A DNA stretch of 17,241 nucleotides from Cyanobacteria bacterium UBA11368 (GCA_003501785.1 DNOW01000491.1:3989-21229), one strand, 5' to 3'; shown: positions 2,136 through 6,023, counted from the stretch's first letter. The notes: generated by a model not told the origin, from the letters alone. Numbers and translations are program-made.

Positions 2136-3062
2136 ATGAATATTAAGCAAAATTTTCAAAACCAAATCGTGGAAGAGCTATTTTCTGGAAACCTGAGTGA
2201 GGAGAAGGCTTGTTTTCTTCGACGATTCGCCCCGGAAAATCACCCGGATAACAAAGCAAGCACTCATAAAGTAATTGCTAAACTAATGAAAGATGATTTA
2301 GGAGTTTATTGCGAAGAAAAAATATCTCAAACTATTCGGAAGGTAATTGAGGTAATTCATAAAGCCTACGGAGATGAGATGAAAGCGGATGGCGTTAATA
2401 CTGAGGCATTGTTAAATCTTAAAGCAGGGGGGACACTTAAAGGAGAAGAAGATGAAGAGAGGCACAAAAAATTTAGTCCTTGGAAAGAGGTTTATAATTG
2501 GCTGTGGAATCACAAATACCTGCGGTGGCTTGATGCTAATAGTTGGGAAATACTACAGAAAAAAGCTAAATCTGCTCCCAATTGGTTAAAATTTAAAACA
2601 ACAGAGGAAATATTAGCGTTACACGCAGGAACTAAAGCGCCAACTGTGCGAACTCGTAAAGCCCCAGAAATAAAACCAACGATTCCGGCAAATGAGTCGC
2701 TTTTGATGGAGATTGACTTAGAATATCCGAATTATCAATTGCTGTTATTTAATCGCAGCCAACAGGGGAAAATTTTACTCTGCCCTTCTTTCGTTTATGC
2801 CGTGAATCCTATTATTGAAAAACCGCCTATTTTGCTGCCTCAGAAGGATCGTTTGGAAGATACATTTATGTTTGAGGAAATGGGCAAAGAGGAATTTTTG
2901 GCAATTGTGTTGGAGAAACATTTGAGTTTACCTTGGTTGACTCCCCGCGAAGAAGAAGATCTACCGACATGGAATGCTGAACGGATTAAGGAGTTATTTG
3001 AACAATTGGAACAGCAAGATAGTTGGCAAGTTTTTTATCAAAATTTTGAGGTGGTAAAATGA
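2136..3062 (+). CDS. Hypothetical protein; possible divergent N-terminal J-domain (HPD motif) and DUF4384-like C-terminal region
   Basis: The N-terminus (EELFSGNLSEEKACFLRRFAPENHPDNKASTHKVIAKLMKD) aligns loosely with the J-domain helix II / HPD loop / helix III. The C-terminal segment (EYPNYQLLLFNRSQQGKILLCPS...LPQKDRLEDTFMFEEMGKEEFLAIVLEKHLSLP) resembles the DUF4384 pattern often found with caspase/CHAT proteins. Both domain calls are from memory of family consensus, not a search. The stop is 78 bp upstream of the TPR-CHAT gene on the same strand. Confidence 0.55.
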   Translation: MNIKQNFQNQIVEELFSGNLSEEKACFLRRFAPENHPDNKASTHKVIAKLMKDDLGVYCEEKISQTIRKVIEVIHKAYGDEMKADGVNTEALLNLKAGGTLKGEEDEERHKKFSPWKEVYNWLWNHKYLRWLDANSWEILQKKAKSAPNWLKFKTTEEILALHAGTKAPTVRTRKAPEIKPTIPANESLLMEIDLEYPNYQLLLFNRSQQGKILLCPSFVYAVNPIIEKPPILLPQKDRLEDTFMFEEMGKEEFLAIVLEKHLSLPWLTPREEEDLPTWNAERIKELFEQLEQQDSWQVFYQNFEVVK

Positions 3063-3074
3063 GAACCTGGAGTT

Positions 3075-3091
3075 TAGAAACTCGGTTTCTA
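3075..3091 (+). other. Small hairpin (tagaaac-tcg-gtttcta) between the two co-directional genes
   Basis: A 7-bp perfect inverted repeat with a 3-nt loop, followed by a T-rich tract (cttcattatctcttaattta). It could be an attenuator or a partial terminator within a two-gene operon. Confidence 0.3.
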
Positions 3092-3140
3092 GCCTACTGC
3101 TTCATTATCTCTTAATTTAACTTACACATAGGAAATTAAA

Positions 3141-6023
3141 ATGGACAAACAACGCATAACCGCCTATGGGCAACTTGTACAACAACTACTTGAATGTCCC
3201 AGTGACAAAGAAATGCAAATTTTAAAAGCTAACTCTGACCTTCTCGACATAGGGCTTTTGAAAACAGCGATTTCAGGTGTTCAAGTCTTCAGCGAAAACG
3301 GGAACCAAACTATTGCCGAATCTTTAACCAATATCTCTTTAAACCTGAGCGAATTTTTCGGAAGTTCCCAGCAGCCAAGGGAAGTGAGAAAAGCAACAGC
3401 AGATATTTTATTGGACTTTGGAAATAAATTATTTAACAGCCAGTTAACTATCAGTTTACGGTTATGGACACAGAGTTTTCTCATTTATAGAGCTATTGAT
3501 GCTCGTCAACAGATAGCGACTGCAATAAAAAGCTTAGGTATAGTTTCTTATTGCTTGGGAAATTACGAACAAGCGATCGCCTGCTATCAACAGTCTTTAG
3601 CCATTTGTCGCGAACCAGAAATTCAAGATCGACAAGAGGAAGCAGCGTCGCTCGCAAATTTAGGCAATGCTTATGAGTCTTTGGGAAAATACGAACAAGC
3701 AATAGACTGCTACCAACAGTCTTTAACCATTTTTCATGAAATTAAGAACCGCCGTGGAGAAGCCGCTGCCCTCAGTAATTTAGGCAACACTTACGAGTTT
3801 TTGGGAGATTACAACAAAGCGATCGCTTACCACGAAGATTCTTTAGCCATTTGTAGGGAAATGGAAATCAAACATCCTCTTGGGGAAGCAGCTTCTCTGT
3901 CAGGTTTAGGCAACGCTTACAACTATTTGGGAGATTACAACAAAGCAATCACTAAGCACACACAGTCTTTAACTATTCTTCAAGAAATCAAAAACCGTCG
4001 TGGGCAAGCAGATGCACTGGGGAATTTAGCCAACGCCTACGGCGCTCTAGGAAATTACAAACAAGCAATTAAATTTTACCAACAGCAATTAGACATTTGT
4101 CGGGAACCACAAACCAAAGATCGTCGTGGGGAAGCGAACTGCCTTAATAACATTGGTAACAATTATCTCCAATTACAGCAAGCAGAGCTAGCGATAGGAA
4201 AATTCCAACAATGTCTAAAAATTGCTAAATCAGAATCCATGCCTTCCCTATGCTTCACAGCAGGTCGCAATCTTGGCGATATTGGCTTCACGCAAGGCAA
4301 CTGGCAACTCGCCTTAGAAGGATACGAACCCGCCATGCAAGCAGTCGAACAACTCCGTAAAGGTTCAACCACCGACAAACGCCGCCAAGAAATCATCGCA
4401 GAAGCTTTCTCCGTTTACGCCAACGCCGTCCAATGCTACATCAACCTCAAACAATACGATGAAGCCGTCGAAACCGCAGACCGTTCCCGTTCTCGCCACC
4501 TCGCAGACTTATTCGCCAGCAAAGACCTCTACCCCCAAGGCGAAATTCCCCCGGAAGTGGAAGAATACTATCGCCTGCAAGAACAAAGCAACCGTTTGCG
4601 TTTTTCTGACAATAATGGAATGAAAGCACTCGCCACCACTCTGCAACCAACCCCAAACGGCGACGCTATCATCGAAAAGATTCAAGAATTAGAAGAGGAA
4701 AAAAAGAAAGCTTGGCTGAAAATTCGCAGTAAAGACGAAGTTTTGGCAGGTCAATTGCAACCAGAACTCCTCTATGTCAAGGATATGCAAGCCTTAATTC
4801 CCGATGCCGAAACCGCCATCCTCAATTTGTACACCACTGGCGAACATACGCACATTTTCATCTTGCGTCAAAATCAACCAACCCAACTCCACACCTGCGA
4901 AGGTCAAGGGCTTGAAACTTTGCAAAAGTGGCTATTCGACAACTGGTTAAAACCTTATAAAGAAAACCCAACCGCATGGCGAAATCAATTGGGTAAATTT
5001 CTCTCCGAACTCGCAAACCGCCTGCAAATTCATCGACTACTTGACGAACATCTCAAAGGCATAAAAGAACTAATTATTATCCCTCATCTGTACCTGCATC
5101 AAATCCCCTTTGCTGCCTTACCTTTAAACAACATTCCCATTCCCCACAGCGATATAGCTTCCGAAAAAATACGTGGGCCAAAACGTCGCAGCCAACCCTC
5201 AAACACCCCTGACAAAACCCCACCCCTACAACCCGAATACCTCAGCGATAAATTCCGCATTCGCATCGTTCCCAGTTGCCAAATACTCAACTTTTGCCAC
5301 CAGCGAGGTGACCTCAAACCTGCCACAATGGGAATCGTGGAAAATGCCACAGGCGACCTCGTTTTCACTGGCTACGAGTGCGAAACCCTGGCAACAATGC
5401 ACAAAGTTAACCCAGATAGTCGCCTCCAATACCAGCAAGCAACGATCGCTAACTATCAAAACTTACTCGATCGAGTGCAAATCCTCCATTCCAGCCATCA
5501 CGCCAGTTCCCAACTCGATAATTCCCTCGAATCAAAACTGCTATTATTCGACGGCGAAATCAACCTCGGTCGCATTTTCACCTGGAGATTTTCGCACCTA
5601 GCCGAAGTCTTCCTCTCCTGCTGCGAAACCAATTTAACCCTCACCCAAATAACCGACGATCCGCTTAGTATTGCTAGCGGTTTCCTCTGTGCTGGTGCGA
5701 GAAATGCGGTCAGTACCTTGTGGGCAGTGGACGATTTAGCAACCGCTTTATTTTGCATTTTATACTATCAGGAAAAGCAGGACAAGAGCCGTTCCGAAGC
5801 GATCCGACAAGCACAATTTAAGCTGCGTAACTTGACAGGCGATGAATTATCTGATATCTATAAACGGCAATTAGAAGATTACTTTGAGCAGCAACAATGG
5901 GGAGAAAATAAAGTAGAAATTATCAAAAATGTGCGAGTGCGATTAGATTTGCTTTGTCGAGAAAGATTGCCGTTTGTCAGTCCTTATTATTGGTCGGGTT
6001 TTGTATCGCAGGGTTTGGCGTAA
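3141..6023 (+). CDS. Tetratricopeptide-repeat protein with C-terminal CHAT (caspase-like) protease domain
   Basis: At least six tandem TPR units of about 40-42 aa (e.g. ASLANLGNAYESLGKYEQAIDCYQQSL). The C-terminal region carries the CHAT catalytic dyad context: ILHSSHHASS (His) and VFLSCCETNLT (Cys, matching the CHAT hhSAC-T pattern). The length of 960 aa is typical of cyanobacterial TPR-CHAT proteins. Confidence 0.85.
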   Translation: MDKQRITAYGQLVQQLLECPSDKEMQILKANSDLLDIGLLKTAISGVQVFSENGNQTIAESLTNISLNLSEFFGSSQQPREVRKATADILLDFGNKLFNSQLTISLRLWTQSFLIYRAIDARQQIATAIKSLGIVSYCLGNYEQAIACYQQSLAICREPEIQDRQEEAASLANLGNAYESLGKYEQAIDCYQQSLTIFHEIKNRRGEAAALSNLGNTYEFLGDYNKAIAYHEDSLAICREMEIKHPLGEAASLSGLGNAYNYLGDYNKAITKHTQSLTILQEIKNRRGQADALGNLANAYGALGNYKQAIKFYQQQLDICREPQTKDRRGEANCLNNIGNNYLQLQQAELAIGKFQQCLKIAKSESMPSLCFTAGRNLGDIGFTQGNWQLALEGYEPAMQAVEQLRKGSTTDKRRQEIIAEAFSVYANAVQCYINLKQYDEAVETADRSRSRHLADLFASKDLYPQGEIPPEVEEYYRLQEQSNRLRFSDNNGMKALATTLQPTPNGDAIIEKIQELEEEKKKAWLKIRSKDEVLAGQLQPELLYVKDMQALIPDAETAILNLYTTGEHTHIFILRQNQPTQLHTCEGQGLETLQKWLFDNWLKPYKENPTAWRNQLGKFLSELANRLQIHRLLDEHLKGIKELIIIPHLYLHQIPFAALPLNNIPIPHSDIASEKIRGPKRRSQPSNTPDKTPPLQPEYLSDKFRIRIVPSCQILNFCHQRGDLKPATMGIVENATGDLVFTGYECETLATMHKVNPDSRLQYQQATIANYQNLLDRVQILHSSHHASSQLDNSLESKLLLFDGEINLGRIFTWRFSHLAEVFLSCCETNLTLTQITDDPLSIASGFLCAGARNAVSTLWAVDDLATALFCILYYQEKQDKSRSEAIRQAQFKLRNLTGDELSDIYKRQLEDYFEQQQWGENKVEIIKNVRVRLDLLCRERLPFVSPYYWSGFVSQGLA
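3529..4150 (+). repeat. Intragenic tandem repeats of about 120-126 bp encoding the TPR units
   Basis: Nucleotide-level recurrence is visible, e.g. caacagtctttagccatttgtcgcgaacca / caacagtctttaaccatttttcatgaaatt / gaagattctttagccatttgtagggaaatg, and repeated aatttaggcaa(c/t)gcttac. Confidence 0.7.

Follow-up and report, generated by a model that had tools for sequence, protein, structure and literature searches.

What does a caspase-like protease do beside a small protein for which scans with Pfam, NCBIfam and PADLOC return no match? The question is raised by two adjacent genes in a 17,241-nucleotide stretch of DNA from Cyanobacteria bacterium UBA11368 (referred to here in its entirety as the window, with coordinates counted from its first letter). 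The upstream gene, termed A, encodes the unrecognized protein, and the downstream gene on the same strand, termed B, encodes a TPR-CHAT protease. An original prediction, made from the window sequence, had placed both open reading frames and the 78-bp gap between them, and these were re-derived identically. It had read A as a J-domain protein with a DUF4384-like C-terminus, and the pair as a conflict-type protease module; not all of that reading has endured.

A conserved gene pair of filamentous cyanobacteria

Protein A, which is identical to a hypothetical protein from 'Cyanobacteria bacterium UBA11369', has 109 homologues, all of them found in filamentous cyanobacteria. A genome scan yielded 31 loci from Microcoleus, Oscillatoria, Planktothrix-like organisms, Moorena, Symploca, Okeania and related filamentous cyanobacteria. 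In 25 of these 31 loci a TPR-CHAT gene of the B type follows A on the same strand; in three (L006, L008 and L016) the contig ends too soon for the pairing to be judged, and in two (L022 and L030) a fragment of A is all that is present. A corresponding scan of metagenomes returned 80 loci when an alignment of the CHAT half was used as the query, and none when the query was a single B sequence. All eight metagenomic B orthologues (at least 59% identical in the CHAT half) with enough upstream DNA to be assessed have A, while among more distant B paralogues (40-53% identical) only three, which are 45-51% identical, have it, in a correspondingly divergent form. A TPR-CHAT gene again follows P0146, a remote relative that is 29% identical to A. 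Judged by this synteny, A and B are a genuine conserved two-gene module of filamentous cyanobacteria, as had been proposed from the window.

The protease itself is readily placed. In B, Pfam recognizes TPR_12 five times (E 7e-58), together with a CHAT domain (PF12770) that scores 105.7 bits (E 4e-30) where the gathering cut-off is 24. A phmmer comparison of B with two Csx29 chains of known structure (8d9f_A and 7x8a_D, E 7e-5) sets its 'SHHA' on 'CHG' and its 'SCCET' on 'GACET'; the motif 'VFLSCCET' is confirmed in B, and both members of the dyad, His787 and Cys828, are invariant across 18 orthologues (alignment positions H347 and C388). B can thus be assigned, in agreement with the original prediction, to the TPR-CHAT proteases (clan CD, caspase fold) with an intact dyad, and is predicted to be active. 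It is not Csx29, to judge by a score of 62.4 bits with the NCBIfam model NF041237 (which lies under that model's cut-off of 300) and by a window that contains no Cas7-11 gene. Across genera, in Oscillatoriales loci, the CHAT half of B is 72-87% identical, and A 33-68%. The number of repeats varies among B orthologues, with lengths that range from 917 to 1448 residues and tblastn matches that fall in shifted registers. In one locus (L017, 7023-11837) the B orthologue appears to be interrupted in its TPR region by a minus-strand open reading frame of 423 residues (7792-9063), which, with its YADD motif and HNH-like tail, resembles a group II intron reverse transcriptase/maturase.

The architecture of A was drawn from an AlphaFold2 model (pLDDT 86.5, pTM 0.83), in which a helical N-terminal domain is followed by a Trp-rich helix, a Pro-rich disordered linker, a DUF4384-like beta-sandwich and a C-terminal extension. 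The model places helices at residues 115-143 and 156-163, and its pLDDT falls below 50 over residues 165-177 of the linker. When identity to the window protein is taken domain by domain, residues 1-95 (the N-domain) are 74-84% identical in one subgroup of relatives, 27-39% in another and approximately 50% in a small third subgroup, while the Trp-rich helix, the DUF4384 domain and the extension are 55-82% identical in nearly all members, whatever their N-domain subgroup. By this measure, the N-domain diverges independently of the remaining protein. In two further variants the N-terminus is replaced altogether, by TPRs in P0089 and by an unrelated region of 340 residues in P0105; both lie upstream of a TPR-CHAT gene and keep A from approximately residue 116 or 137 to residue 308, and the Trp-rich region, which such variants retain, belongs to the constant part. 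From these comparisons A is modular, and its constant C-terminal module is the part that travels with the TPR-CHAT protease. The linker, at 0-43% identity (residues 164-180), is poorly conserved except at its opening, where a basic residue (K167 in the window protein, codon 2634-2636) corresponds to Arg or Lys in 27 of 31 close relatives and in 63 of 99 members of the wider family.

The identity of that constant module emerged only by an indirect route. The Pfam model of DUF4384 (PF14326, gathering score 27 bits) does not match A at E<=1, and among 31 close relatives scanned it matches a single one, at E 0.2. A profile built from residues 137-308 of A, in turn, recovered 176 relatives at E<=1e-3 among 1.84 billion representative proteins, and in every one of them the matched region is C-terminal. 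PF14326 is present in 44 of 99 scanned relatives (with values reaching E 8.8e-16), and in P0253, P0230 and P0229 the PF14326 stretch falls inside the stretch matched by the A profile. Because so many of these relatives carry PF14326 within coinciding regions, residues ~186-266 of A can be regarded as a divergent DUF4384, established indirectly through transitive profile evidence; the small beta-sandwich fold of DUF4384 is also that of the C-part of A. The DUF4384 resemblance claimed earlier therefore holds through relatives found by profile, and not through a direct Pfam match.

In those relatives, the A-type C-domain is joined to kinases, CHAT domains, trypsin, TIR domains, STAND NTPases, TPRs, XRE-type helix-turn-helix (HTH) domains, NNH5 and TCAD9. 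DUF4384 is among the most frequent accessory domains of bacterial caspase homologues, and in cyanobacterial orthocaspases it ranks fifth (PMC8283722). As in those fusions, with which it is homologous by profile search, the domain in A is C-terminal and tied to a caspase-fold protease; it differs from them in lying below Pfam detection, in its additional helix-strand extension and preceding Trp-rich helix, and in being linked to the protease in trans, through a neighbouring gene, rather than by fusion. One protein, P0135 (L036, 4723-6390, with a DUF1822 gene just before it), unites a CHAT domain and an A-type DUF4384-like C-module in a single chain and, to the extent that domain matches reveal it, shows the CHAT/DUF4384-like partnership in cis.

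The variable N-terminal domain and its candidate operator

The N-domain of A, which contains an HPD tripeptide, had originally been aligned, plausibly though weakly, with helices II-III of a J domain. The tripeptide (H36-P37-D38) is literally there, in the window protein and its closest relatives; elsewhere in the family the consensus at this point is 'DKNRP', and most members have 'NRP' without the Asp. Pfam finds no DnaJ domain (PF00226) in A at E<=0.1 or in 31 relatives at E<=1, and a profile of the N-part retrieved no J proteins from the sequences of the PDB. An hhalign comparison of that profile with five reference J domains, each first verified as PF00226, gave a probability of 1.25% over 8 columns, with the HPD unaligned, and the four-helix J fold does not appear in A. 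The J-domain assignment was accordingly abandoned, and the notion of Hsp70-dependent control of the protease fell with it.

What the N-domain looks like instead, in the predicted model, is an HTH-type domain, and hence a candidate for DNA binding. Sequence-level tests gave no match: Pfam finds no sigma-70 region 4, LuxR or Spo0A-type HTH domain in it, and hhalign comparison with sigmaE region 4, NarL and GerE yielded a probability of 0.7%. When the N-domain by itself served as the query profile, nothing came back but fragments of A-family members and one spurious match, and at this sensitivity it has no detectable relatives beyond the family; a full-length profile of A found nothing meaningful among PDB sequences, and Foldseek matched no PDB structure to the A model at E<=0.001. 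Because the fold scores are modest and the sequence-level tests negative, the assignment should be read as an indication at the level of the fold only. In remote members of the A family, XRE-type HTH domains that Pfam does recognize stand ahead of DUF4384.

The DNA in front of gene A points in the same direction. It contains a phased array of short direct repeats, which Tandem Repeats Finder reports with a period of 20, 2.5 copies and a 100% match, and which is the sole tandem repeat within 1800-3200; a search for the array pattern found three overlapping matches, against none expected in 200 shuffles. The array ends 17 bp before a promoter-like site (TTGGCA-17-TAAGAT), the sequence block of which is conserved in L001-L008. 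Across the family A is preceded by equivalent phased arrays, also in loci whose remaining intergenic sequence is unrelated, and the sequence and period of these arrays co-vary with the subtype of the N-domain: AAAT[AT]AT at 10 bp accompanies the subgroup of the window protein and GAAATAGT at 9 bp the second subgroup, with further variants (AAATAAC, CAAATRAC and AAATAA) elsewhere in the family. When 1.16 Mb of fetched loci were searched on both strands with a regular expression for three or more phased copies, 16 sites were found, and every one of them lay on the plus strand, a short way upstream of A. Variants that do not have this N-domain (L032, L034, L039, L043 and L046) have no array upstream, and none was found within 260 bp upstream of A in L019, L020, L028 and L029. 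The array is therefore a candidate operator, to which the N-domain of A would bind.

A second candidate for a shared operator was discarded. The palindrome AGAAACTCGGTTTCT (AGAAAC-NNN-GTTTCT), at 3077-3091 in the spacer between A and B, proved to be a dispersed intergenic repeat, with 90 copies in 1.18 Mb of fetched loci (often paired, either 18 or approximately 50 bp apart), and is therefore not specific to the module. The spacer in the window has no terminator-like site and folds in an ordinary manner (z -1.25), and an Rfam scan of the window gave no matches.

A protease that may act on its partner

How might such a pair operate? The reading that is tentatively preferred, and which falls only a little short of being probable, is that A and B, as a protease and its partner, make up a signalling module that stands alone, of the Csx29-Csx30 kind but operating without CRISPR, in which A is an HTH-type regulator and, most likely, the substrate of B. 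In such a module the TPR region of B would sense a signal, while the N-domain of A would bind the phased AAATAAT array before its own promoter, and possibly regulate the divergent nuclease gene on the other side as well. The constant part of A (the Trp-rich helix, the DUF4384 beta-sandwich and the extension) would couple A to B, and the cut made by B would fall within the disordered Pro-rich linker of A or close to it, where K167, a conserved basic residue within an otherwise unconserved disordered segment, is a candidate site. DNA-binding domain and DUF4384 part would thereby come apart, and transcription would be switched. That A binds DNA, that it contacts B, that it is cut and where, as well as the signal and the role of the pair in the cell, are matters of inference. 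A doubtful but still serious proposal is that the pair represents a CRISPR-independent 'Craspase-like' switch, in which a TPR-CHAT protease cleaves a dedicated, operator-bound transcription factor, DUF4384 serves as a general docking or degron module, and exchanges of the N-domain rewire the output.

The closest experimentally studied parallel occurs among the type III-E systems. There, as in B and A, the gene for a TPR-CHAT His-Cys protease (Csx29) stands beside that of a two-domain partner (Csx30) joined by a flexible linker, the C-domain of the partner is the part that has to do with the protease, and its N-part provides a transcriptional output; the likeness of A is architectural only. For Csx29 to cleave Csx30 the C-terminal residues of Csx30 must be present, while the N-domain of Csx30 is not needed for this and has a sigma factor under its control (PMC10028731), and in one group of Csx30 proteins, according to passages of a preprint (bioRxiv 10.1101/2022.08.17.504292), the C-terminal domain is a DUF4384. 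The differences are equally plain. No gene for Cas7-11/gRAMP, csx30, csx31 or a sigma factor is present among the window's open reading frames or in the related loci, the window contains no CRISPR array, and the activating signal of type III-E, a target RNA on the Cas effector, cannot apply to the A-B module. In Csx30 the N-domain is constant and the C-domain varies, whereas in the A family the C-part is constant and the N-domain varies; moreover, Csx30 sequesters a sigma factor, whereas A appears to carry a DNA-binding domain and an operator of its own.

Other systems provide partial precedents. HetF of Anabaena PCC 7120, a CHAT protease, cleaves its substrate PatU3 after Arg117 (PMC9457339); by description it resembles the proposal for A and B, being a cyanobacterial CHAT protease with a dedicated regulatory substrate. 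It differs in being a divisome component for which no TPR-DUF4384 logic is known, and in that passages of the same paper do not present hetF and patU3 as neighbouring genes. Kaur et al. 2021 described caspase/CHAT neighbourhoods with an extracytoplasmic function sigma factor and DUF1822; these, together with DdvA-DdvS, couple a caspase-fold or TPR-CHAT protease to a transcriptional output, as is proposed for A and B. The window module contains neither DUF1822 nor a sigma factor, its partner being an HTH-like/DUF4384 protein, and DdvA, a TPR-CHAT anti-sigma factor, is a membrane protein the dyad of which is incomplete; that of B is intact. TPR-CHAT proteases, fusions of DUF4384 with caspases and caspase-sigma/DUF1822 neighbourhoods are already described; an HTH-like/DUF4384 protein paired in trans with a TPR-CHAT protease, or its array, is absent from passages of PMC8283722 and of bioRxiv 10.1101/2022.08.17.504292.

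Several observations weigh against a substrate module of this kind. Csx29 cuts Csx30 within a loop of the C-terminal domain, and not in the interdomain linker (PMC10028731), and the analogy with Csx29-Csx30 therefore does not predict the cleavage site in A. Locus L031 has an intact A and no B within 6 kb. The spacing between A and B is 150 bp or less in 13 of 29 loci; in the other 16 small genes sit between the two, often on the opposite strand, so that co-transcription of A and B is not obligatory and a stoichiometric coupling is not guaranteed. Finally, A/T-rich phased repeats could have another explanation, whether as a promoter element of the bent-DNA or UP-like type or as a site for some different protein.

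Among the alternatives, the one that fares best, although it is rather unlikely, makes A a regulator or sensor-adaptor of B rather than its substrate: DUF4384 would bind a ligand or the TPRs and switch B, which would cleave other targets, and the N-domain would do nothing beyond autoregulation. This arrangement accounts equally well for the conserved pairing and the constant C-part, and the C-terminal place of DUF4384 in kinases, STAND NTPases, TIR proteins and proteases is the one to be expected of a sensor or interaction domain. A further point in its favour is the L032 variant, where an AAA_16 (STAND-like) gene comes first and its stop codon overlaps the start codon of the variant gene. What it leaves unexplained is a variable, output-type N-domain joined through a disordered linker that retains a conserved basic residue, and Csx30, the nearest parallel, is a substrate. 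The substrate and regulator readings are compatible with each other.

Neighbouring genes and possible wider roles

The window places the pair next to genes that had suggested a role in conflict: a divergent PD-(D/E)XK nuclease gene and a likely toxin-antitoxin (TA) pair. Both are indeed present, and the nuclease is conserved beside the pair, being divergently upstream of A in 14 of the 31 genome loci (at 73-81% identity, with differing outer flanks) and in L117; it is kept in Microcoleus-type loci and absent from more distant ones. The nuclease matches Cas4 models of PADLOC and NCBIfam at E 9e-11 and 3e-10, respectively, which lies under the NCBIfam cut-off, and it has a weak match to DruK in PADLOC; its membership of the module is uncertain. 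The TA pair, in contrast, is not conserved with A and B in the 31 loci, and the argument for a conflict role that was drawn from it lapses.

That A and B constitute an abortive-infection or programmed-cell-death module, in which B kills by broad proteolysis after its TPRs sense a phage, A holds B back in the manner of an antitoxin and the nuclease serves as a further effector, seems distinctly improbable. TPR-CHAT and caspase-fold proteases do act in prokaryotic conflict systems (PMC8195603; PMC10028731), the partners of DUF4384 (TIR, STAND, NNH5, TCAD9, kinase and trypsin) are typical of such systems, a Cas4-like nuclease gene is kept beside A in the 14 loci just mentioned, and the gap between A and B attracts small genes of the TA type. 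Yet PADLOC-DB v2 identifies no system here (with nothing for A, and generic TPR models for B), the TA pair of the window is not retained with the module, and the surroundings showed no sign of a phage or mobile element. In its CHAT half B is, moreover, better conserved than A, unlike fast-diversifying defence effectors, and the scan finds one locus per genome, in a position that is conserved in the Microcoleus group.

A housekeeping or developmental role in filamentous cyanobacteria (in division, filament integrity or differentiation, after the manner of HetF-PatU3) is very improbable, although the distribution of the pair is limited to filamentous, Oscillatoriales-type cyanobacteria, B is strongly conserved and occurs once per genome in the scan, and division and differentiation are under the control of HetF, a CHAT protease that has one specific substrate (PMC9457339). 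The pair is absent or decayed in some filamentous lineages (L022, L030, L001 and L117), which would be unusual for an essential function, and paralogous TPR-CHAT modules with exchanged partners resemble the diversification of conflict systems. Least credible of all, and safely dismissed, is the earlier proposal that A is a J-domain co-chaperone that places the protease under Hsp70 control, for which the literal H36-P37-D38 of the window protein was the sole argument.

The decay of gene A takes two forms. In L001 (6001-6915) and L117 (6001-6950) its open reading frame is frameshifted or split, while L022 (6118-6492) and L030, from Trichodesmium (1018-1353), have C-terminal remnants only, lacking a CHAT gene beside them; some lineages can therefore do without the module. 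Small genes have often been inserted into the spacer between A and B (L003, L006, L008, L009, L011, L013, L015, L018, L025, L032 and L117), and the genes inserted there, which are mostly on the opposite strand, include Uma2 (PF05685) with DUF29 (PF01724), BrnT-like open reading frames of 99 residues and Phd/YefM-like antitoxins.

Paralogous TPR-CHAT genes (L064-L116) have other partners upstream on the same strand: DUF1822 with a sigma-like protein of 231 residues that has no Pfam match, Gp49/HigB with an extended HTH_3 protein, YbjN with NYN, and DUF6717 (examples of loci with exchanged partners are L073, 3251-4701; L068, 4797-5910; and L077, 5915-6382). Those that lie behind DUF1822 and sigma-like or HTH_3 genes resemble the neighbourhoods of Kaur et al. 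2021. The DUF1822 and HTH_3 partners, together with a partner of 155 residues, have a C-terminal motif in common ('DDSVAVKVR...ELLDLAExLLEKLAEIxG'), and are a further example, after A, of proteins beside a TPR-CHAT protease that keep the C-terminus constant and vary in the N-terminus.

The remaining genes of the window were considered as members of the module and rejected: the TA pair and the genes for magnesium chelatase, MarR, a DUF6745 protein and a vault protein are not conserved in the 31 loci. The gene for magnesium chelatase subunit H (BchH/ChlH; TIGR02025, 1570 bits), at 6073-9951 on the minus strand, converges on the 3' end of B and is a housekeeping gene. Farther on, a homologue of the eukaryotic major vault protein (MVP; 874 residues, 13514-16138, plus strand) matches Vault repeats at E 1e-67 and MVP_shoulder at E 6e-55; such homologues from bacteria, cyanobacteria included, are treated in bioRxiv 10.1101/872010 and PMC3762200. 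It adjoins, on the opposite strand, the gene for a DUF6745 protein of 484 residues (E 4e-14; 11621-13075, minus strand).

Table 1. Positions in the window of genes A and B, their parts and the adjoining features
Feature	Residues	Position	Strand	Description
HTH_17 gene of TA pair		75-581	+	likely toxin-antitoxin, with next row
PIN_3 / RSP_2648-family PIN gene of TA pair		585-1013	+	begins 4 bp on
PD-(D/E)XK / Cas4-like nuclease gene		1252-1899	-	divergent from A; Pfam PDDEXK_1, E 2.5e-6
Phased direct-repeat array		2010-2057	+	5 x AAATAAT, 10-bp period; candidate operator for A N-domain
Promoter-like site		2074-2102	+	TTGGCA-17-TAAGAT with TG, just 3' of array; consensus scan match only
Gene A	308 aa	2136-3062	+	open reading frame and translation
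A N-domain	1-95	2136-2420	+	predicted HTH-type (Spo0A-effector / sigma-region-4-like fold); holds non-conserved HPD 36-38
A Trp-rich helix and short helix	112-163	2469-2624	+	invariant W116, W122, W124, W131, W137, W150
A Pro-rich linker	164-180	2625-2675	+	predicted disordered, poorly conserved; candidate cleavage region
A C-part	181-308	2676-3059	+	divergent DUF4384 beta-sandwich (~186-266) and conserved helix-strand extension (269-308), by profile and model
Gene B	960 aa	3141-6023	+	TPR-CHAT caspase-like protease
B TPR repeat region	~85-450	3393-4490	+	Pfam TPR families
B CHAT domain	624-958	5010-6014	+	PF12770
B catalytic His787	787	5499-5501	+	aligned to Csx29 His
B catalytic Cys828	828	5622-5624	+	aligned to Csx29 Cys

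If the preferred reading of A and B as a protease/partner signalling module is true, DUF4384 gains a role that can be tested, namely that of coupling a partner protein to a TPR-CHAT protease. The module is experimentally simple, with one protease, one candidate substrate and one candidate operator, and the co-variation of N-domain subtype and array supplies natural specificity swaps for tests of protein-DNA recognition; should B be a protease with a single substrate, the two proteins might furnish an orthogonal protease/substrate pair. For the filamentous cyanobacteria themselves, the module suggests that the logic of type III-E, in which a protease controls transcription, exists as an independent unit of two genes.

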